A stretch of DNA of 64,000 nt, taken from assembly GCA_937915765.1 (NCBI GenBank), contig CALGHE010000133.1, positions 8,387-72,386 on the forward strand. Reading direction: 5' to 3'. Every line of letters starts with the position of its first letter. The first letter of the stretch is position 1. A model generated the notes under the pieces. The model saw only the letters and a list, made by a program, of their open reading frames with translations, did no database searches and had not been told where the DNA came from. The position numbers and the translations under genes are program-made. This DNA comes from an uncultured Bacteroidales bacterium (GTDB lineage Bacteria; Bacteroidota; Bacteroidia; Bacteroidales; Paludibacteraceae). Shown piece after piece: positions 3,001 to 64,000 of this stretch.

Positions 3001-4879
3001 TTTCAGACTTAGCTATTCAAATAAGTGCAAAACGTCTATAGACTTCTCTTTTGTTTCTGACCCATTAAAGGTTGTGCAGAGCGATCAGCCTATGTCCATC
3101 TGCGAAGGTGACACATTTAAGTCTGAACTTGAAATTGTGTGTGATGCGGAGCCTGTTGTGGAATGGTATAAGAATGATGAAAAATTAGCCATTTCATCGA
3201 ATAAAATAGAGTTTGACAATGTGGACGAAACTGTTGGGGGAATTTATAGGTATAAGGTGTTTACTCGAGGTTGCGTTGTTGAAAGTCAGTTAGGAAACGA
3301 GCCTTTGACGGTTAGGCCTTATATTAAGTTTGCTGCAGAAAAAAATGAGTATGTGGCACGTTATGATAGTCTGTTGGCTATCAAATTGACTATGAAGGAA
3401 CCGGAGTCCTTGCCTGCTGAAATTGCGTGGATTGAAAATAATAAGACGATTTCGCGAAGTAAAGATATTTCGTTTAATGTAAGAAGAGACAGAAACTTGT
3501 ATGTTGAAATGTCGGATCCGGAGTATTGCAGTGCTTCAGAGTCTATAAGTGTTAAGGTTGATGCAAGGCTGGCCTTAAATACTGTAATTTTAGATTCGAA
3601 CAATGGAATTGCTAAAGACAAAATATGTTATGGAGATAACGCAGTTCTTGTTATTGACACGGCAGGTACGGGCAGATTCGTTTTTGCTGATAAGGTGCGG
3701 CTGAAGGTTACGGAACTTACGGATGTGGACTCTAAAATTTTGTATGACTGGCATTTGAAAGATGGAAAACTAAATTTGGCAATATCTCCAAAGTCTGATG
3801 CTGAGTATATAGTTGAATTTGTATATAGAGAGGGCGAAGGTGTTGACGAACAGAGGATTGTGAGGAGAGAAAAACTGACGGTGGCTCCGCCTGTGTTGAT
3901 TGATCTTCCAGTAGGGCTGAGGGCTTGCGAAGGTGATATAGTGGAAATATCGGCAATGAATGTGTCTCCTGCAGACGCAAAACTGAGCTGGAAGCCTGAT
4001 GCTTCGATAGTGAGCGGATTGACTAATTCAAAATCCATTAAGGTTGAGGCTGTTTATGAGAAGTCTGAGAGTCATTCTTTCACAAAAACTTATACTCTTG
4101 TTGCGTCCTATGCAGATTGTCAGGACCGTGAGTTTGTTGTTAACCTAAAGGTTGACGAAGCCCTGAAAGGAAGAATCGAAGGTGCGGACAGAATTTGCGA
4201 AGGGTCAATGGCTGAACTTGATGCATCTTCATTCGACGCGGTCAGGTATGTGTGGTATTCAGAATCATTTGAGGGAGAAAAACAGTCTGCAAAGATTTCG
4301 ATTTCGTCAGAATATGATACTTATTATCAATTGTTTATGGAAAGAGGCCTCTGTTCTATGGTTTTAGACCATTTTGTGGAGGTTACAACTGTCCCTCATA
4401 TAGAAAAGGTTGATTCTGTTAATTATCAGGATGTTGAGGTTGTTCTAGCATCATCGTTAGGAACGCCTCCGTTCAGTATTTGGATAGATGATAAGCAGCA
4501 GGTTGGTCAGAACCCGTTGAAAGAGAAGGTTGGATATGGCAAACATACAGCATATGTGGTTGATGATGTGGGCTGTTCTGATAAATATGAGTTTGAAGTA
4601 AAGGCTCCTGCTCTTAGTATTCCTGTGGCAGTCTCTCCTAATGGCGACGGAATAAACGAAACATTTGAAATTCCGGCAATTTCAGAGGCTTATCCTGATG
4701 CTAAAATAAAGATTTATGACAGATTCGGAAAGAAACTTGCTGAATATAGGGGTGATGCTGGAGCTTGGGACGGAACGTACAATGGTATGCCGATGCCGTC
4801 AACCGACTATTGGTATGAAATAGAGATAAAGGAGCTCTCTAAAACTTATACGGGACATTTCACGCTGATTAGACAGTAG
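2..4879 (+). CDS. Giant cell-surface adhesin-like protein, 5'-truncated by the window edge; Ig-like repeat modules plus T9SS type B (gliding-motility-associated, CHU_C-like) C-terminal sorting domain
   Basis: The frame is open from nt 2, with no stop before the first in-window ATG at 29. The sequence is collinear with aa ~835-2431 of the downstream paralog (SKLTSYDCGRIALTSKYWCPPCKKPDANANG vs GKLTDYDCGRIMLTAQYGCPPCNKPDLNANG). The C-terminus SPNGDGINETF..WDGTYNG..YWYEIEI..GHFTLIRQ fits the type B sorting-domain pattern. Confidence 0.85.
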   Translation, partial: KLDGHTRGTMYFFGVETEGEAYLKMMSSANSYPFEDNLTGSVLVVKQACQGTQLYSGFGPFGNVSFSKLTSYDCGRIALTSKYWCPPCKKPDANANGDYFKIKSSQSVKEDTVHLCRESEAVTFMVSLQTSDADAKFDVLWFDDAKMVDEYALKEDLNTMLSSYKIAWKDIPEGATKTVYVKVRDNEDPNSAGCWIYDSIKIKANKVPLVPEIEVLPFCEGSLQAADIEGIQNKFKTDTLSVAAYLNGAEFDWSTLNSLPGGDVSLRLLPQDLQSGCVGDSSDFLFTVNALPDAPEAPGLDLLKENAFQYIDGAAVALSGHKVLWYKDAVGGIGSEEAFEQDRSVADSFFYWASQINETTKCESERVRVVVTVNDAPKPEVRDSSVCNGDEIDDLASLVTKKSDIYELYWYDSKTAEKGSGSKVPPVFDGTKLGKNVFYVSQKNTETGAESEKQELVVYVYDVKKPSVEDLRYCADEESPELAAVSVVDEENYYYANGFVWYSEGIQENSVPKVSTNVGQTEVFNYSVGQSFTMDNKRVCYGDTVSFTVTVAKMLPPTGNFDVDYIKSEGADNGGVFADLLKQNPDVANPTESNVLVWYDENKNIIGDGTKAPCPPYNADVPVGVDEVFRYYVSQKNEDGCESVLKEVVVTVSSTPRPKVEPVFYCENAEAKPLVASINFVEPYEESDYKLIWYSKNPAEGGAEIVDEIVPSTELSDPNLVEETKSYYVAQYNVNDEDNVSAPSEIKVTVYAKPRLKTDRPAPVCEGTINLVEQWYVSNKVFMKVEAEYVENGGNEVVNEKAVGESGEYSVRGYFPVNDEECSSDFEKIVVQIDTLDGVTVDGVATACPNSIVELSGKTAYSTNNVDYYWADANGDTIKSLTFVSPELGSTVGEEYHFTMLARSGSCMDSVDHKVVIGDGAVDGVLVFKEEGNTESPKRFTASSNSMKFYSCGNEVEVDASEVINTNEIDGDAFRWYDRNGKLIGSGKQMVMNLQRGTHAFRLSYSNKCKTSIDFSFVSDPLKVVQSDQPMSICEGDTFKSELEIVCDAEPVVEWYKNDEKLAISSNKIEFDNVDETVGGIYRYKVFTRGCVVESQLGNEPLTVRPYIKFAAEKNEYVARYDSLLAIKLTMKEPESLPAEIAWIENNKTISRSKDISFNVRRDRNLYVEMSDPEYCSASESISVKVDARLALNTVILDSNNGIAKDKICYGDNAVLVIDTAGTGRFVFADKVRLKVTELTDVDSKILYDWHLKDGKLNLAISPKSDAEYIVEFVYREGEGVDEQRIVRREKLTVAPPVLIDLPVGLRACEGDIVEISAMNVSPADAKLSWKPDASIVSGLTNSKSIKVEAVYEKSESHSFTKTYTLVASYADCQDREFVVNLKVDEALKGRIEGADRICEGSMAELDASSFDAVRYVWYSESFEGEKQSAKISISSEYDTYYQLFMERGLCSMVLDHFVEVTTVPHIEKVDSVNYQDVEVVLASSLGTPPFSIWIDDKQQVGQNPLKEKVGYGKHTAYVVDDVGCSDKYEFEVKAPALSIPVAVSPNGDGINETFEIPAISEAYPDAKIKIYDRFGKKLAEYRGDAGAWDGTYNGMPMPSTDYWYEIEIKELSKTYTGHFTLIRQ

Positions 4880-57114: not shown

Positions 57115-58707
57115 GTGAACAACGAATTAGTAATTGATGTCCAGTCTTCGGAAGTGGCTATCGCGCTGCTTGAAGAGGGTAAACTTGTGGAGATTCACAG
57201 GGAGAACCGCGTCGCGTCTTTTTCTGTCGGCGACATTTACCTTGCTAAGGTGCGGAAAATCATGCCAGGACTTAATGCTGTGTTCGTTGATGTAGGTTAC
57301 GACAAAGGTGCGTTCCTTCATTATCAGGACTTAGGTCCGCAGTTCAGCTCACTTGTCGCTTTCACAAAAAATGTTTTGCGAGACGGCAAACGCGCTCAGC
57401 CGCTGCATAAAATGCAGCTTCATAAAGACATCAGCAAAACCGGAATGATTTCGGATGTGCTTGCGCAAGGGCAGGAAATTATGGTGCAGATTGCTAAAGA
57501 GCCAATCTCCACAAAAGGCCCGAGACTAACTTCCGAGATATCGCTTGCTGGACGGTTTCTCGTTTTGATGCCTTTTGCTGAAAAAGTTTACGTGTCACAG
57601 AAGATCAAGTCTTCTGAAGAGCGTAATCGTATCAAGCAGCTGATGCGCAGCATAAAGCCTAAAAACTTCGGCGTGATTGTGCGCACTGTGGCGGAAGGCA
57701 AGAAGGTGGCGGAACTGGATGCGGAGCTGAAGACGCTGCTTAAGCGTTGGGACGAGGCGGTCGCCAAAATGGCGAGACCGCAGCAGAAGTTGCCGGCGTT
57801 GCTGCTTGAAGAGATGGGCAGAACTGTAAGCCTCTTGAGGGATATATTCAATCCGTCTTTTGAAAATATTTATGTGAACAACCGTTTCGCTTACGGCGAA
57901 ATATGTGATTACGTGGATGCTATTGCTCCGGAATGCAGCGGGCGGGTTAAAATGTATTCGGGAGACCTCCCTATATTTGACCATTTCGGAATTTCTAAGC
58001 AGGTGAAGTCGGGCTTCGGCAGGACTGTGTCCTTCAAGAACGGAGCGTACCTAATTATCGAGCATACAGAGGCGATGCACGTTATTGACGTTAACAGCGG
58101 AAACAAGTCCAAGGGTATTACAGACCAGGAGACAAATGCGGTTGACGTGAACTTGGCTGCGGCAGACGAAATCGCAAGACAGTTGAGGCTGCGCGATATG
58201 GGCGGAATCATCGTTATTGACTTCATTGATATGCAGAAGTCGGAGAACCGCCAGCGTCTGTTTGACAGAATGAAGGAGAATATGGCTCACGACAGGGCCA
58301 GACACAACATTCTCCAGCTTAGCAAGTTTGGCTTGATGCAGATTACCCGGCAGCGAGTGAGGCCGGAGATGCATGTTAGCACCGAAGAGGTGTGTCCTAC
58401 TTGCTTAGGGAAAGGCTTTTCCCAACCATCAATCTTATTTGTCGATAAACTGGAAGACAAAATAGATTATCTTGTCAATGAATTGAACGTAAAGAACTTC
58501 AAGCTGTTTGTGCACCCGTATGTAGAGGCGTACATCACGAAGGGTTTCCCTTTCTGTTCCATCAAGTGGAAATGGAGGCGGAAATACGGCAAGTTCAAGA
58601 TTGTGCCATCCCAGAGCATTGCTTATTTGCAGTATCTTGTTTTGGACAAGGACGGTCATGAAATAGACCTTCGCGAAGACTTGGAGGCAGTAAACGCAAA
58701 AAAATGA
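57115..58707 (+). CDS. rng: Ribonuclease E/G family protein (RNase G-like)
   Basis: The N-terminal region is S1-like (GDIYLAKVRKIMPGLNAVFVDVGYDKGAFLH). The catalytic region has HVIDVNSG, and GGIIVIDFIDM is also present. The start is GTG and the protein is 530 aa. Confidence 0.9.
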   Translation: MNNELVIDVQSSEVAIALLEEGKLVEIHRENRVASFSVGDIYLAKVRKIMPGLNAVFVDVGYDKGAFLHYQDLGPQFSSLVAFTKNVLRDGKRAQPLHKMQLHKDISKTGMISDVLAQGQEIMVQIAKEPISTKGPRLTSEISLAGRFLVLMPFAEKVYVSQKIKSSEERNRIKQLMRSIKPKNFGVIVRTVAEGKKVAELDAELKTLLKRWDEAVAKMARPQQKLPALLLEEMGRTVSLLRDIFNPSFENIYVNNRFAYGEICDYVDAIAPECSGRVKMYSGDLPIFDHFGISKQVKSGFGRTVSFKNGAYLIIEHTEAMHVIDVNSGNKSKGITDQETNAVDVNLAAADEIARQLRLRDMGGIIVIDFIDMQKSENRQRLFDRMKENMAHDRARHNILQLSKFGLMQITRQRVRPEMHVSTEEVCPTCLGKGFSQPSILFVDKLEDKIDYLVNELNVKNFKLFVHPYVEAYITKGFPFCSIKWKWRRKYGKFKIVPSQSIAYLQYLVLDKDGHEIDLREDLEAVNAKK

Positions 58708-58724
58708 CAAGCTTAAGAAGCAAT

Positions 58725-58765
58725 AAAGCGGAGCAGCTCAAAAAGAGCGCTCCGCTTTAGTTTTT
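58725..58765 (+). terminator. Rho-independent terminator after rng
   Basis: aaagcggagc (58725-58734) pairs with gctccgcttt (58749-58758), followed by agttttt. Confidence 0.75.
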
Positions 58766-59062
58766 GGGGAGGGGAGAGATCGGAATGTATTGCTGTCCGG
58801 TAAAATGACTATCTTCGCCTATGGTTGTTTATTTTAACGTGAGTTTGACGAATTGTAATTATAAAGAAAGACAAACTATTATCAATTATACGCGCGACGT
58901 GAATGCATAGTTTCTTATGAAGGAAGCAGAGAGATTTCAGCCGCATTCATTCTGCTGTCCGGTGATATCTCCTTTTTGACGGATTGGACAGATTGACAGA
59001 ATATTTCTGCTTTGTTTTGTTAAAAAGTTTGCAGTATTCGTCTGTCAAACGAAAAAAATCTA

Positions 59063-59070
59063 TAACTTTG
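59063..59070 (+). promoter_or_regulatory. Bacteroidota -7 box candidate promoter for the AT-rich three-gene operon
   Basis: TAACTTTG lies 160 nt upstream of the ATG at 59230. The distance is long, so confidence is low. Confidence 0.3.
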
Positions 59071-59229
59071 TCTATGGTAATCTTGCGTTGTTTTTTTGTT
59101 TTCTTTTTTTTACTGTGAAATCACGAAAAAATAATGCTAATAAGTAATCAGTAGGTTAAATTTATCTAACTCATGTTAGTTTAAATAAATTAGGGTGTGT
59201 TACAATCACTGAAAGAATAATTTTCTATT

Positions 59230-60300
59230 ATGCAAATACCTCAATCCCAGATATTGACAACTCGTCACCTTAACAGGGTGTTTGATAAAACTGTGGCCAC
59301 CTATAAATTTTATTGGTTTCTTGGTATTCTAGACTTGTTTGTGAAGCAAGGAAAGACTAGGATTAATGTATGGGAAATAATGATTACGATGGTTGCTAAT
59401 GCTTGGTATCCAGTTAACTATTTCCGTCTTTCATTTGGCAAGTCCGAATCGTTATATGACGCTATTCTTGCTTTACAACGTGAGAATAATATTCCAATTA
59501 ATATTGGAATGAAGGATTTAACTATATTGCTTCAAGCATTGATCCAACGACCGGAGATACGAAAACAACTGAATTTCCTTCAAATGAATGTACCTTTCCG
59601 TTTTCTTCGTCCTTGGATAGATACTTCTGATGACCGTGAAATGGTAAAACGTTCACAAACATTCGAAAATGGATGTTTGTATAAACTCGAGAAAGAGAAT
59701 GGATCTTTGTGGGTAGAACTGAATCCTATTTGGTTGATATATTTGAAAGAGAATTATGATATATTAAGCTCATTTGCATATTGGGGGTTGACAAACTTCT
59801 TGCAAGTCCGCAACCCTAATGTTCCTAATATTCCAAGTAAACTAATAAAGAAAGAGGAACGAAATTCTTTAACATCCCAACGTAGATTTTGGAATACAGC
59901 AATAACCGGAGGAATGGAAGTAAGGTGCCTATATACTGGTAATTTGTTGATAGAATGTGAGTACGACCTTGACCATTTTATCCCTTGGAGTTTTGTCTCT
60001 CATGATTTATTGTGGAATTTAATGCCCGCAGATTCAAGTATTAATAGTTCAAAAAGTAATAAATTACCAGACTTGGATTTATATCTGCCCAAATTAGCAG
60101 AAGCCCATCAAGTAGCATTGCGCATTTATATAGGAAAGGGGAAACAAGATAAAATATTGGAAGATTATTTGTCTCTTGGCCATACCCCACAAGATATAGC
60201 TATGATGGATAGAGAACACTTGCTTGACTGCTTTTTCCAAACATTTGCTCCAATGAACCAGATTGCTCTTAATATGGGATTTGAATCATGGAAATATTGA
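59230..60300 (+). CDS. HNH (His-Me finger) endonuclease with an uncharacterised ~220-aa N-terminal domain
   Basis: The HNH core is C..EYDLDH(249)FIPWSFVSHDLLWNLMPADSSINSSKSNKLP, i.e. DH...N...N. I do not recognise the N-terminal region (..ATYKFYWFLGILDLF..). The 3' end overlaps the next ATG by 13 nt. Confidence 0.8.
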   Translation: MQIPQSQILTTRHLNRVFDKTVATYKFYWFLGILDLFVKQGKTRINVWEIMITMVANAWYPVNYFRLSFGKSESLYDAILALQRENNIPINIGMKDLTILLQALIQRPEIRKQLNFLQMNVPFRFLRPWIDTSDDREMVKRSQTFENGCLYKLEKENGSLWVELNPIWLIYLKENYDILSSFAYWGLTNFLQVRNPNVPNIPSKLIKKEERNSLTSQRRFWNTAITGGMEVRCLYTGNLLIECEYDLDHFIPWSFVSHDLLWNLMPADSSINSSKSNKLPDLDLYLPKLAEAHQVALRIYIGKGKQDKILEDYLSLGHTPQDIAMMDREHLLDCFFQTFAPMNQIALNMGFESWKY

Positions 60301-61169
60301 ATTCTATGCAAACCGAAAAAATAAACCATCCATACCTCACGGCTATCAAGCGTACAGATTTGTCTGTGCCTACTCGTTATCTACTCCAACGTGATTTGTT
60401 GAAAGGAAAAATCCTAGACTTTGGTTGCGGTTTTGGATATGATACGGATGAATTGCAAAGGAGGGGATATGATATTACTGGTTATGATTATTATTATCGC
60501 CCTGACTATCCTGATGGTAAATTTGATACAATTATCTGCAACTATGTGTTGAATGTGCTTGAACCTTACGCACAAGCAGAGGTTATGATGAATGTTACAA
60601 ATTTGCTGTCTCCAAAGGGTTCTGCTTTCTTTGCGGTTAGAAGAGATTTGAAAGAAGAGGGTTTTCGGCTTCATGCAATTCATAAGCAATATACTTATCA
60701 ATGCAATGTTAAGTTGCCTTTTCAAAGCCTTGTCCATAATAATAGCTACGAATTGTATCAATACAATCATTTTAATAAACTTCCGCGGAAAGAAGGCGAA
60801 AAATGTCCATTCTGTAAATTATCTCGAAGAGTGGAAGTCATTTGTGAAACGGCAACTTGTGTTGCTTTCTATGATGGTTATCCAGTTTCGCCTGGTCATG
60901 CATTGATTATTCCAAAGCGTCATGTGGCTAATTATTTTGACCTAACTAATCATGAACGTGAAGCAATGAATATAATGCTTCAATATGTTAAACGAAAGAT
61001 AGATGAGCGTTTCCATCCTGATGGTTATAATATTGGAATTAATGTGAATGAAGCTGCAGGCCAATCAGTATTTCATGTTCATATGCATTTGATACCACGT
61101 TATAAAGGAGATGTGGATAATCCTAAAGGTGGTGTGCGGGGTGTGATTCCAAGTAAACAAAAATATTAG
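60288..61169 (+). CDS. Fusion protein: class I SAM-dependent methyltransferase (N-terminal) :: HIT-family histidine-triad nucleotide hydrolase/transferase (C-terminal)
   Basis: MTase motif I is ILDFG(46)CGFGYD, with an acidic residue after beta-2 (ITGYD) and IICNYVLNVLEP. The HIT domain runs CPFCK..AFYDGYPVSPGHALIIPKRH..NIGINVNEAAGQSVFH(263)VH(265)MH(267)LIPR. An alternative start at 60306 is possible. Confidence 0.8.
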   Translation: MEILNSMQTEKINHPYLTAIKRTDLSVPTRYLLQRDLLKGKILDFGCGFGYDTDELQRRGYDITGYDYYYRPDYPDGKFDTIICNYVLNVLEPYAQAEVMMNVTNLLSPKGSAFFAVRRDLKEEGFRLHAIHKQYTYQCNVKLPFQSLVHNNSYELYQYNHFNKLPRKEGEKCPFCKLSRRVEVICETATCVAFYDGYPVSPGHALIIPKRHVANYFDLTNHEREAMNIMLQYVKRKIDERFHPDGYNIGINVNEAAGQSVFHVHMHLIPRYKGDVDNPKGGVRGVIPSKQKY

Positions 61170-61170
61170 C

Positions 61171-62865
61171 ATGAAACATAGAAATTCACAACCATATCTC
61201 ACTTATGCATTAAATAAAGAAGGTGATTTGGTACACATTGACAGCGTTCCAAATGGTAATGAATGTGAATGTTTTTGTCCACATTGTAAAAGTGAACTTT
61301 GTGCAAAAAACGGTGGTTCGGGTCTAAAAATGGTTCATCATTTTGCTCACATAAATGGTGCTGATTGTTTCGGTGCAGTTGAATCAGCTTTACATAAGAT
61401 GGCAAAGGATGTCATAAAAGAAACTTTAAGTTTACAGTTACCAGACAGATTAGATGGAAGCCGGGGAGAGTTATTAAAATTTGATAATATAGAAGTTGAG
61501 TATTACGACAAGGAGACTAATTTGCGCCCAGATTGTATTGGTTACTATGGAGATAAAAAGATTTGGATTGAATTTAAACGTACTCACGCTGTTGATACAA
61601 GAAAGAAAGGCAAAATTATTTCTGCCAAAATAGATTGCGTAGAGCTTGACCTAAATGTTTGCAAACTTGATCCAGATGTCGTTCGTAATTTCATAATAAA
61701 CGAAACTCAAAATCGTATCTGGATTAGAGATTGTGAATTAAAAACAAGAATGTCAGGTCGTATGCTTGGATATGGCACCTATCTTGACAGATATTCTGAT
61801 TATTATGAATATAGACACATAGAACGTGTATTCGCAAAGGATGAGAATGATATACTAGTCAACTTATTAGACGACAAAGTCGACATGAATATTCATAATT
61901 ATTATTGTTTGGCATGTGGCAAAGAACTTACTATAAATATTAATGAATTGGGAACTTATATTTTTGTACATGTTGATGAGAATGTTCATTGTAACGATGA
62001 TTTATATTTGCATGAAGCAGCAAAAGATATTCTCCATCATAAGTTCATTGCTTCAGATGATTTTAAAATTCTTGTTCCTCAATATCAAAACTGTGCAGAG
62101 AAGACATGTTGTGCTTTATTTCAATCAGAATTATGTACGACAGATAAAAGTATTACATACGATTTGAAACAACATGGCTATACAGAATGCTTGAAAGATT
62201 ACAAATTTCAAGATTTTAAATTTAAATGTGATTTAGTTATTAAAACTGCTAATAGCAATAAAAATGCCATTCTAATAAGTATTAATGCTGGTGCTTGCCA
62301 TGTTGATATAGATACTAAAGAATATAGAATCATAGATATTGAAGTGTCAAATAGTGATCAACTTTTATCTCTATTAAATGAACCGATTGGACACTTTCAT
62401 TCATCTTTTATAAATTTTAAACGTGAAAATGAAAAGACTGCTTTACGTTCGGAAATGGATAGAAAGATATTAAAGTTCTCTTTATTTTCTAGTGGTAAGT
62501 ACCGTATAGACACAGTCTCATGCGATAAGTTAAATGAGCATAAGTACAGTACTGTTTTAGAATACATTTTTATTGAAGGAGTAGATAATAAATACGATGC
62601 AAAATTGTACTCACTTTGGCGGTGTTATGAACAAAAACGAAATGTCTGCTTCTGCGAAATATGTTGGTTCATTGTTAAAACTAATGGTTTTTATGGTGTA
62701 TCGGAAACCATATGTAAACGATATAAAACAAAAGGAACCCCACATTACCCATTAGAGGTTATGCCTGTTAATTGTCCCTATTTTAAAATTAACAAAGAAA
62801 TAGAGAGTGTGTTAAAGTTAAATTATGGAAATATGGTTGTAAATGAAAATAAAATTCATGAATAA
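61171..62865 (+). CDS. Protein with two tandem CoiA-like modules (zinc-ribbon + PD-(D/E)XK nuclease fold) and a C-terminal Cys-rich region
   Basis: Module 1 has CECFCPHCKSEL..HHFAH..C..ESALHKMAK, then RPD(121)C..IWIE(134)FK(136)RTH and CVELDL. Module 2 has YYCLACGKEL..FVHVDENVHC..LHEAAK, then KCDLVI..AILISIN (ExK lost) and RIIDIEV. The C-terminus has CFCEIC..C..C. The gene starts 1 nt after the previous stop. Confidence 0.75.
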   Translation: MKHRNSQPYLTYALNKEGDLVHIDSVPNGNECECFCPHCKSELCAKNGGSGLKMVHHFAHINGADCFGAVESALHKMAKDVIKETLSLQLPDRLDGSRGELLKFDNIEVEYYDKETNLRPDCIGYYGDKKIWIEFKRTHAVDTRKKGKIISAKIDCVELDLNVCKLDPDVVRNFIINETQNRIWIRDCELKTRMSGRMLGYGTYLDRYSDYYEYRHIERVFAKDENDILVNLLDDKVDMNIHNYYCLACGKELTININELGTYIFVHVDENVHCNDDLYLHEAAKDILHHKFIASDDFKILVPQYQNCAEKTCCALFQSELCTTDKSITYDLKQHGYTECLKDYKFQDFKFKCDLVIKTANSNKNAILISINAGACHVDIDTKEYRIIDIEVSNSDQLLSLLNEPIGHFHSSFINFKRENEKTALRSEMDRKILKFSLFSSGKYRIDTVSCDKLNEHKYSTVLEYIFIEGVDNKYDAKLYSLWRCYEQKRNVCFCEICWFIVKTNGFYGVSETICKRYKTKGTPHYPLEVMPVNCPYFKINKEIESVLKLNYGNMVVNENKIHE

Positions 62866-63167
62866 CTTAATTGATCTTTCATTCCATAAAAATAATTAGT
62901 GTATGTAAGATAAACGAGTCAAGAAACAAAAGCATGATTTAATTCAAGTTAAATATATTATATAAACAATTTAATATATTTGTATTAAAACATCAAAAAA
63001 AGACGTTAAGCAGTTGAATTAATAATAAGTACGTTGAAACTTCGAAGTCTTAGGAGTTTTAGGTGGGAATGCTTATGCCTTTATTAGGGGTTAAGTGGAG
63101 AAGCCGTGCAATCTGAAAATTTGACATTCTAAAGATTGAGCTTTTTGATTCTGATGCAATAATTAAA

Positions 63168-63195
63168 CCTCAGCCATAATGAGTTGTGGCTGAGG
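63168..63195 (-). terminator. Hairpin downstream of the MFS gene (could act on either strand)
   Basis: cctcagcca (63168-63176) pairs with tggctgagg (63187-63195), a perfect 9-bp stem with a 10-nt loop. T-rich sequence lies on both sides. Confidence 0.5.
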
Positions 63196-63219
63196 TGGTT
63201 ATGTGTTTTGTTTTATCTC

Positions 63220-64000
63220 TCACTTCCCCTTCTTCCAAAGCACGCAGGAGAGGGTGAAGAGGATTGCGGAGAGGACGAAGATGTAGATGAACGAGACGTG
63301 CATGTTGTATTTCTCCGCTATCATGCCTATCACGAACGGTCCGAACAGAAAGCCGGTGCCGCTGATTGTGTTCACCATCGCTATGCCGGTGCCCGGACTT
63401 ACGTCTTTGCGGTTGCCTGCCAGACTGTAGATTATCGGCACAAGACACGATAGCCCAAGCCCTGAAATGAACAGACCTGTGACGGCAAAGTAGATGTCGG
63501 TCTTCATAATCATCACGCCCAGTCCCAACATGGCAAGAAAACTGCATCCTAAAAGGATTGTCGGCTCGCTGAACCGCTTGCGTATGGAGTCGCCGAAGAA
63601 TCGCCCGAAGGCAATGAACGACGCGTATATCAGAAGCCCAACCGGAGCGATGTTCTCTTCCAGCGAAACAATCTCTTTCATGTAAACCGTGCTCCAGTCA
63701 GACACGCTGCCCTCTATGATTCGTCCGCACAAAGCGATGAACGCGATAAGCAGCAAAACGCCTTTGGGCAGCAGCAGCTTGAATCCTTGCGGAACGTTTT
63801 TCTTGGACGGTGTTTCTTTGAGAAAGTAAGTGCGCACGATGTAGAACTGAATCAGCGAGATGGCAGACACCATTATGAAGTGAGCCGCCACGTTTACGTT
63901 GAGGGTCAGGCAGGCAATGCTTAGGATTGCGCCAGCGCCTACGCCTACGTAAAACAGCGCGTGGAACAGTCCGATGATGGGACGCTTGTATGCCTTTTCC
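63220..64000 (-). CDS. MFS-type transporter, N-terminal part lies beyond the window edge
   Basis: The minus-strand frame stays open from the stop at 63220-63222 to nt 64000. I hand-translated upstream of the GTG at 63891 and got ..KAYKRPIIGLFHALFYVGVGAGAILSIACLTLNVN.. The protein is a run of hydrophobic helices typical of MFS carriers. Confidence 0.75.
   Translation of the reverse strand, partial: EKAYKRPIIGLFHALFYVGVGAGAILSIACLTLNVNVAAHFIMVSAISLIQFYIVRTYFLKETPSKKNVPQGFKLLLPKGVLLLIAFIALCGRIIEGSVSDWSTVYMKEIVSLEENIAPVGLLIYASFIAFGRFFGDSIRKRFSEPTILLGCSFLAMLGLGVMIMKTDIYFAVTGLFISGLGLSCLVPIIYSLAGNRKDVSPGTGIAMVNTISGTGFLFGPFVIGMIAEKYNMHVSFIYIFVLSAILFTLSCVLWKKGK

Follow-up and report, generated by a model that had tools for sequence, protein, structure and literature searches.

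The window analysed in this study, a 64,000-nucleotide (nt) stretch of DNA from a Paludibacteraceae bacterium known from metagenomes, contains between the gene rng and a convergent major facilitator superfamily (MFS) gene a cassette of three open reading frames (ORFs), all of which are located on the plus strand. Gene 1 (59230-60300) codes for a protein of 356 amino acids (aa) with a mostly helical N-terminal domain, a Cas9-type HNH domain and a helical C-terminal region. Gene 2 (60288-61169, 293 aa) codes for a class I S-adenosylmethionine (SAM)-dependent methyltransferase (MTase) fused to a Hint-type HIT domain, and the product of gene 3 (61171-62865, 564 aa) is nuclease-like, with a CoiA_N-type zinc ribbon and a PD-(D/E)XK motif followed by a degenerate second half. 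The initial annotation of this DNA regarded the three genes as a single candidate system for defence, similar to restriction-modification (R-M). We judge the chances to be slightly better than even for a different explanation, namely that two independent modules are situated in a defence hotspot downstream of rng: a pair formed by the HNH protein and the MTase::HIT protein, which would have a defence role, and gene 3, which would be cargo.

The tight packing of the three ORFs and their coordinates were reproduced, as were the non-coding spacers of 522 nt upstream (from the rng stop at 58707 to 59230) and 354 nt downstream (from 62865 to the end of the MFS gene at 63220). The cassette is indeed AT-rich and compositionally foreign, with about 30-37% GC versus about 45-52% in the flanking genes. 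In 300-nt windows the GC content of the cassette is 0.28-0.38, while rng shows values of 0.44-0.51 and the MFS gene values of 0.50-0.52. A single nucleotide separates the stop codon of gene 2 from the start codon of gene 3 (TAG C ATG). The annotated ATG of gene 2 at 60288 overlaps the end of gene 1, whose stop lies at 60300. However, the conserved start of gene 2 is probably ATG 60306, corresponding to M7 and located 5 nt past the gene 1 stop, because an in-frame gene 1 stop is found just upstream of the matching conserved methionine in 10 related loci. While the overlapping start assumed initially is thus doubtful, genes 1 and 2 are tightly coupled with either start codon. The HNH, SAM-MTase::HIT and PD-(D/E)XK motifs recognised earlier are present, the catalytic motifs are intact in all three proteins, and the individual residues that had been singled out are conserved in relatives.

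A conserved pair of HNH and MTase::HIT genes

A scan for gene 2 in one genome per species yielded 80 loci, all of them from Bacteroidales, which represent at least eight families or genera, including Paludibacteraceae, Phocaeicola, Bacteroides, Prevotella, Paraprevotella, Alloprevotella and Muribaculaceae. Gene 1 is located directly 5' of gene 2 at all 80 loci, gene 3 is present at none of them, and loci reached via gene 1 homologues likewise hold gene 2. The synteny proposed for the three genes thus holds for the HNH gene and the MTase::HIT gene but not for the CoiA-like gene, which accompanies the pair in one sublineage only, and the view of the cassette as a three-gene system had to be abandoned. 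A large protein search retrieved more than 3,000 homologues of genes 1 and 2 and 409 homologues of gene 3, and with thousands of database proteins the pair is a common feature of Bacteroidales from gut and rumen. We consider it a credible candidate for a new defence module, one that is real and fairly common.

Outside the Bacteroidales, a query restricted to the HIT domain of gene 2 retrieved stand-alone HIT genes from plasmids, which show 49-58% identity to this domain. On four out of seven plasmids, which belong to Betaproteobacteria and Cytophagales and extend the range of the pair to several phyla, the HIT gene adjoins an HNH gene of about 340-350 aa: it precedes the HNH gene on Polaromonas pPNAP03 and Aromatoleum EbN1 plasmid 2, and it follows the HNH gene with a gap of 1-4 nt on Persicobacter pPP10 and a Hymenobacter plasmid (L115, 5974-7441; L116, 6073-7445; L120, 2409-3797; L121, 2412-3797). 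In each of the four plasmid HNH genes, a family profile of gene 1 matches the region of the N-terminal motif as well as the HNH domain, the Aromatoleum HNH protein aligns with residues 1-279 of gene 1 by BLASTP, and no MTase domain was found in any of the four HIT partners. Because these plasmid relatives adjoin gene 1-like HNH genes and are devoid of an MTase domain, the conserved core consists of HNH and HIT, with the methyltransferase as a Bacteroidales-specific addition. The surroundings of the plasmid pairs include insertion sequence elements, a restriction enzyme of the BPTD_3080 family, a PLD protein, Fic and a NUDIX-helicase pair.

Scans of viral contigs detected no full MTase::HIT gene and only the four distant relatives of gene 1 mentioned below, and the pair is therefore not typically phage-borne. 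None of the systems in PADLOC-DB v2.0.0 was matched, in agreement with the earlier view that the genes belong to no named system: gene 1 gave a weak match to the HNH region of Cas9, gene 2 matched the HIT domain of ThsC (4.8e-12) and, weakly, mad2, and gene 3 matched nothing. Likewise, a published description of an HNH-HIT or HNH-MTase::HIT module was not found in the literature searched. If validated, the pair would be a module for defence or addiction that is built on a nuclease and has a partner from the HIT class, which is without an established role in phage defence, and it would provide a biological context for HIT/SAM-MTase fusions, which carry the NCBI name 'bifunctional methyltransferase/HIT family protein'.

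A strain-variable defence hotspot downstream of rng

The exact rng protein of the window is found on 74 contigs, the exact gene 1 protein on four. Contigs with an identical rng match the window DNA only up to about 58775-58780, just past a terminator-like hairpin of rng at 58744-58758, and the left edge of the island together with the upstream spacer accordingly extends from 58776 to 59229. In conspecific strains the site after rng has alternative occupants (L091, L093, L094, L098). One of them is a phosphorothioate (PT)-based defence island with SspD (1.4e-85), SspE (7e-292), PbeA (E = 0) and a PbeC-like ATPase; a second comprises Cas1, Cas2 and Cas4 behind a gap of ~3.5 kb without called genes. 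Because identical-rng contigs carry other defence islands at the same site, the cassette is located in a real strain-variable defence hotspot. The defence-island setting proposed initially is thus confirmed, both by the variability of this site among strains and by the known defence genes among which relatives of the cassette genes are found.

Other copies of the three-gene cassette share DNA with the window from 59183-59227 to 62993, the latter position being within the right spacer (62866-63166). This spacer is followed by a stem-loop of 13 bp (63167-63196), which lies immediately downstream of the convergent MFS gene. The island is marked neither by flanking repeats nor by an integrase or a tRNA, and a search of the spacers revealed neither direct nor inverted flanking repeats, nor a match to the strict Bacteroides promoter consensus.

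Gene 1, a putative HNH nuclease with a variable N-terminal domain

In the product of gene 1, an HNH_4 domain (Pfam, E 2.2e-10) covers aa 233-280 (nt 59926-60069). The protein possesses the hallmarks of an HNH catalytic core, i.e. a histidine as general base and Asn/Asn or His as metal ligands, and DH249, N263 and N272 are invariant or nearly so in 68 relatives with 30-47% identity. The first 225 aa (nt 59230-59904) form an uncharacterised, mostly helical domain in which none of the known readers of modified DNA (SRA, PUA/EVE, DpnI-like winged helix, sulfur-binding domain (SBD)) is recognisable. The family of this N-terminal domain comprises 1,313 representatives (50% clustering, E <= 0.001), most of which are 350-380 aa long and contain an HNH domain. 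Along gene 1, variability peaks at aa 81-120 and 281-340, and conservation is highest in the HNH core, at aa 181-200 and over the final 16 residues. A search of PHROGs added nothing.

The N-terminal domain also occurs inside proteins of 660-1249 aa (P0384, P0385, P0423 and P0434, sigma-70 fusions; P0438, an HTH_40 fusion). In the sigma-70 fusions it is located downstream of region 2/4 modules that have MzaA, the anti-phage sigma factor of Mza, as their best match in NCBIfam, and several of the fusion proteins carry repeated SH3-like 'KVV.IRK..G..K.V.K.DDG' motifs. The MzaA-like fusions hint at a sensing or DNA-recognition module that might be common to nucleases and transcription factors.

Among known proteins, gene 1 is reminiscent of the type IV HNH enzymes, which include SBD-HNH and SBD-SRA-HNH proteins (ScoMcrA, EcoWI) and EVE-HNH proteins (VcaM4I) (PMC10853773, PMC7897488). 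Shared features are a single chain of about 300-360 aa, in which a non-catalytic N-terminal domain is followed by HNH, the occurrence in defence islands and, at a few loci, the position of gene 1 directly behind PT modification genes. In contrast to these enzymes, however, the N-terminal domain of gene 1 matches neither a known reader family nor a solved structure, and gene 1 is always accompanied by an enzymatic HIT partner, whereas type IV enzymes require none.

Gene 2, a highly conserved MTase::HIT fusion

Gene 2 combines a Methyltransf_23 domain at aa 30-162 (nt 60375-60773; Pfam, E 1e-13) with a HIT domain at aa 183-273 (nt 60834-61106; Pfam, E 6.1e-27). The ILDFGCG motif and the HVHMHLI motif at aa 263-269, including H263, H265 and H267, are invariant. 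The HIT domain is Hint-type and carries the nucleotide-binding/catalytic motif HxHxHxx, and its best PDB matches are bacterial and archaeal HIT proteins (~1e-17). In the window gene 2 represents a short form, which stops precisely where the HIT domain ends, as it does in 50 of 81 loci. A long form with a C-terminal tail of 71-97 aa was found at 23 of the 81 loci (L001, L003, L004, L007, L010 and 18 more); this tail is weakly HTH-like and shows the motif W..(D/E)..L...Y..G.S...LA..F.R...AI..RL.KLG.

The initial annotation had seen in gene 2 a modification enzyme, an idea that did not withstand closer inspection as far as methylation of DNA is concerned. Family matches of the MTase domain are limited to Methyltransf_23, 25, 11 and 12, its nearest solved relatives in a profile search are TehB (3e-7), UbiG and other small-molecule MTases, and DNA MTases are absent from both sets of matches. 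Neither an amino-MTase (D/N/S)PP(Y/F/W) motif nor a C5-MTase catalytic motif was seen in gene 2, and no target-recognition or variable specificity segment was found along its length. By any test applied, the MTase does not appear to be a DNA methyltransferase. The cassette does resemble a classical R-M system in that a SAM-dependent MTase domain stands beside a nuclease in a mobile, compositionally foreign cassette. Such a system is nevertheless unlikely, because the MTase resembles small-molecule MTases and is devoid of a variable specificity region; in further contrast to R-M systems, this TehB/UbiG-like domain lacks DNA-MTase motifs, is 85% conserved across families and is dispensable in other phyla.

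The two genes of the pair differ in their conservation, with a median amino acid identity across loci of 0.85 for gene 2 and 0.54 for gene 1. At third codon positions, copies of gene 2 are only 0.41 identical, and their GC content at these positions ranges from 0.19 to 0.76. Rates were judged from such codon-position identities; the ratio of nonsynonymous to synonymous substitutions (dN/dS) is distorted by tblastn hits reaching upstream of the true gene 2 start. Since gene 2 is conserved in protein and saturated at third positions, the pair is old, has drifted towards the base composition of its hosts and does not represent a recent sweep. The MTase::HIT protein is under unusually strong constraint over its whole length, and this pattern of selection fits a combination of an enzyme with an invariant substrate and a diversifying recognition protein.

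In the explanation that we favour, the HNH protein would be a DNA-cutting effector, and its fast-evolving N-terminal domain would supply the recognition of a target or trigger. The MTase::HIT protein would act on an invariant nucleotide-type substrate, which might be a nucleotide, a nucleotidylated protein or a nucleic-acid end, and would thereby restrain or complement the HNH nuclease, rather than being a sequence-specific DNA methylase. Gene 3 would be independent cargo and one of at least 44 alternatives in the slot behind the MTase::HIT stop.

Several points weigh against this explanation. We infer the defence function (by association) as well as the division of labour between the two proteins, and the activities of all three proteins are predictions. 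For a defence gene, the extreme conservation of gene 2 would be unusual. For aa 1-225 of gene 1, no match was obtained by sequence or profile in Pfam, NCBIfam, PADLOC or PDB, with Cas9 HNH domains as the only output of the PDB searches. The AlphaFold2 model of gene 1 is unusable (pLDDT 59.5), its alignment being shallow (79-100% identity plus one more distant sequence), and Foldseek output obtained with it was meaningless. The presence of gene 1 at all 80 loci refers to a set retrieved by a gene 2 query, which is blind to solitary close homologues of gene 1. In addition, a common Paraprevotella locus, the one exception seen to the pairing, contains gene 2 without gene 1, followed by a MkoA-like helicase, and four distant relatives of gene 1 are found on four viral contigs, none of them with a HIT neighbour.

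Variable genes behind gene 2

At 50 of the 81 related loci gene 2 ends, as in the window, at the same ...KQ(K/S)Y codon, and beyond its stop follows unrelated sequence, often with a same-strand gene within 3-40 nt. At least 44 non-redundant genes, many of them known from defence, were collected from this slot. Four of these genes code for TIR proteins, with matches to SPARTA-type TIR-APAZ models at <=1e-140 in two cases; the others include PtuA/GajA-like ATPases, a MkoA-like helicase and proteins with GmrSD, nSTAND3, YobI, HD-CE, RhuM, RecQ and HerA domains. AbiEi/AbiEii and HipBA recur near the pair, at some loci upstream of it; a small XRE-type helix-turn-helix (HTH) gene is found in its vicinity at 20 loci, and two candidate families of PADLOC, PDC-S57 and PDC-S72, also recur there. 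As many of the at least 44 different genes in the slot are still unannotated, the pair could mark new defence genes.

Directly behind gene 2 in L021, L027, L036 and L043 there is a cluster of four genes (399, 197, ~1217 and ~281 aa), located at ~10.9-17.1 kb in L043, whose large protein is SMC-like. A Wadjet-like identity of this cluster, read by eye and matched only weakly at the N-terminus of JetC (5.8e-6), is not claimed.

Conserved marker genes beside variable defence cargo are a feature of P4/P2 hotspots. Small serine recombinases, too, serve as defence markers (PMC13552941). The pair resembles these markers in that conserved genes have many different defence systems alongside, but differs from them in that it consists not of a recombinase or integration gene but of a nuclease and an enzyme with intact catalytic motifs. 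One could imagine that the pair is the conserved 5' end of a site for the expression and exchange of defence genes, where the HNH protein would promote the replacement of cargo. The shared end of gene 2, the unrelated same-strand genes that follow it closely and the size of the cargo collection are consistent with such a platform. Yet we consider it highly improbable: there is no recombinase, no conserved sequence or repeat was found across loci at the junction with the gene 2 stop, and most genes upstream of gene 1 are likewise singletons. Moreover, the synonymous sites of gene 2 are saturated, and it would thus be a poor anchor for homologous exchange between lineages.

Some of the loci are integrative mobilizable elements that encode an integrase, an excisionase-like HTH protein, a primase, MobC and a relaxase. 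Carriage by such elements and by plasmids, next to HipBA and AbiE modules, would be expected if the pair were an addiction module akin to type VII toxin-antitoxin (TA) systems, which stabilises islands and mobilizable elements. The HNH protein would then be the toxin and the MTase::HIT protein a neutraliser acting by chemical modification, that is by nucleotidylation, its removal, or methylation. The co-orientation and tight coupling of the two genes agree with this alternative, as does the persistence of gene 2 without gene 1, which is known from antitoxins and orphan methylases. On the other hand, the gene order is reversed in Betaproteobacteria, and at one locus of a metagenome-assembled genome (L037) gene 1 is intact whereas gene 2 (~3269-4129) is interrupted by an in-frame stop where the other copies have a Tyr codon, at position 131 of its 287-aa translation; this copy may be a pseudogene or may reflect an assembly or sequencing error. 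We regard an addiction module as unlikely, with the qualification that TA and defence roles are compatible and that this alternative therefore overlaps with the explanation that we favour.

Possible links to phosphorothioate modification

The first ~80 residues of the gene 2 MTase, including the segment that precedes motif I, align with positions 6-85 of the 478 positions of TIGR04096, the model of a 'DNA phosphorothioation-associated putative methyltransferase' (2.7e-17). The score of 62.7 bits compares to a cut-off of 150 bits, which gene 2 does not reach; the rest of the model is unmatched, and the HIT domain is found in its place. A relative of this MTase with 41-43% identity, including the TIGR04096-like N-terminal segment, is encoded at 541-864 of a 78.7 kb IMG/VR contig (L122), where no HIT domain was detected with it.

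At four of the 80 loci (L067, L070, L071, L076) ssp modification genes are located directly upstream of the pair, within 10 kb. In L070 (2965-15808) and L071 (2946-10849) a single operon contains an SspC-like gene, small genes of the DUF3990 type, SspD, gene 1 and gene 2, with gene 1 starting 3-5 nt past SspD; the first gene of this operon (287 aa) is presumably SspB, judging only from a DUF4007 N-terminal motif. The pair thus fills the slot that is held by SspE-PbeA in L091. Downstream, L070 continues with a PbeC-like gene and a 191-aa partner gene (p191), while the L071 locus ends one gene past gene 2. PbeC-like and p191 genes adjoin the pair not only in L070 but also in L044, L058, L059 and L076. 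In L067 and L076 SspD is missing and an unrelated AAA ATPase with a small partner gene is inserted, an arrangement that looks like island mosaicism.

These loci raise the possibility that genes 1 and 2 are linked to PT systems, in which they would replace SspE-type effectors or which they would accompany. The HNH protein would read PT status and cut accordingly, HIT would remove AMP or sulfur from intermediates or released nucleotides, and the MTase would methylate the product. Such roles have precedents in HIT enzymes of the Hint type, which desulfurate nucleoside 5'-phosphorothioates, and of the aprataxin type, which de-adenylate DNA. Besides the similarity to TIGR04096 and the position of the pair, the Ssp/Pbe island at the same hotspot in conspecific strains points in this direction, and sspBCD systems do produce PT in gut Bacteroidales (PMC12914056). 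However, ssp genes are near the pair at only the four loci mentioned, two of which are mosaic-like, and the TIGR04096 match is far below cut-off and confined to the N-terminus. A PDB profile search gave no match of the gene 1 N-terminal domain to a sulfur-binding-domain structure, and no PT genes were found near the plasmid HNH-HIT pairs. The three proteins show no match to SspE (DUF262/DUF1524) or SspFGH, the link to SspE being positional only. HIT is also unmentioned in a comparative-genomics survey of PT-associated nucleases (PMC10853773), and a HIT partner is not mentioned in the study of PT systems cited above (PMC12914056). Taken as a whole, a PT-linked module seems improbable to us.

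A more specific form of this idea sees the pair as the effector or 'sanitation' arm of PT immunity, interchangeable with SspE/PbeA. The HNH protein would sense backbone sulfur, HIT would de-adenylate or desulfurate intermediates or released nucleotides, and methylation of the sulfur product would fall to the TehB-like MTase. Such an arm would account for the similarity to TIGR04096, for the position behind SspD and for the Ssp/Pbe island as an alternative occupant of the hotspot, but we give it only a small chance of being correct.

Gene 3, a candidate nuclease gene of its own

The first half of the gene 3 product (aa 1-190) contains a CoiA_N domain (PF25164) at aa 32-66 (32.6 bits versus a cut-off of 26.3, E 5.5e-8) and the triad D121..E134-x-K136 (nt 61531-61578). 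In 50 relatives with at least 43% identity, C32, C34, C36, C39, H57, H60, C66, E71, D121, E134 and K136 are invariant. The second half (aa 215-564, nt 61813-62862) is Cys-rich and degenerate. Gene 3 had been described as a tandem protein, which is correct for the zinc ribbon and the first helix, as these are repeated (aa 10-103 versus 219-315; hhalign E 5e-5, probability 67%), but not for the nuclease triad D..ExK, which is missing in the second half. Apart from CoiA_N, gene 3 shows only weak Pfam matches to DUF7828/DUF7830, and the CoiA nuclease core and C-terminal domains were absent in a Pfam scan with E up to 1. Its AlphaFold2 model (pLDDT 84.5) gave no significant Foldseek match; the weak matches (E 0.1-1) are enriched for PD-(D/E)XK nucleases such as RecU/PrfA, EcoRV, Can2 and Hjc. 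The protein thus resembles CoiA in the succession of a CoiA_N zinc ribbon and a PD-(D/E)XK-type motif, but is twice as long, carries a degenerate second copy of ribbon and helix, and is encoded in defence islands or solitarily, not in the context of competence.

Copies of gene 3 with 96-99% identity accompany the pair in L099, L100 and L138, where the whole cassette of ~3.8 kb (59183/59227-62993 in the window) is conserved at ~90% nucleotide identity. The second island that holds the cassette also carries an HTH gene, DUF3990, two metallophosphoesterases, a PLD-helicase-DUF3427 enzyme, NUDIX and a relaxase-like gene. The movement of the cassette as a unit between at least two genomic contexts, and the translational coupling of all three genes in the window, are what one would expect from a single R-M-like system, in which the MTase::HIT protein would mark self DNA and the HNH and PD-(D/E)XK nucleases would jointly cut unmarked DNA. 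This is nonetheless very unlikely, considering that gene 3 is absent from every pair-bearing locus of the Bacteroidales scan and that its family occurs alone, that the MTase has neither a DNA-MTase family match nor a corresponding motif or variable specificity region, and that the pairs of other phyla do without an MTase domain.

Homologues of gene 3 with 42-74% identity are found without the pair in two types of context, either solitary amid housekeeping genes or behind an XRE-type HTH gene and ahead of a Fic gene. In our view, gene 3 is a self-contained gene for a candidate nuclease, which probably joined the pair in one sublineage and which would define a separate single-gene family of candidate nucleases. 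An example of the second type of context is provided by L106-L110, where a homologue with 68% identity (P0251) overlaps the end of an XRE-type HTH gene of 155-167 aa and is followed by small ORFs and a DUF4172-Fic gene. The same loci encode in their surroundings a Schlafen/AlbA_2 protein of 1341 aa and a NUDIX/ADP-ribosylglycohydrolase pair.

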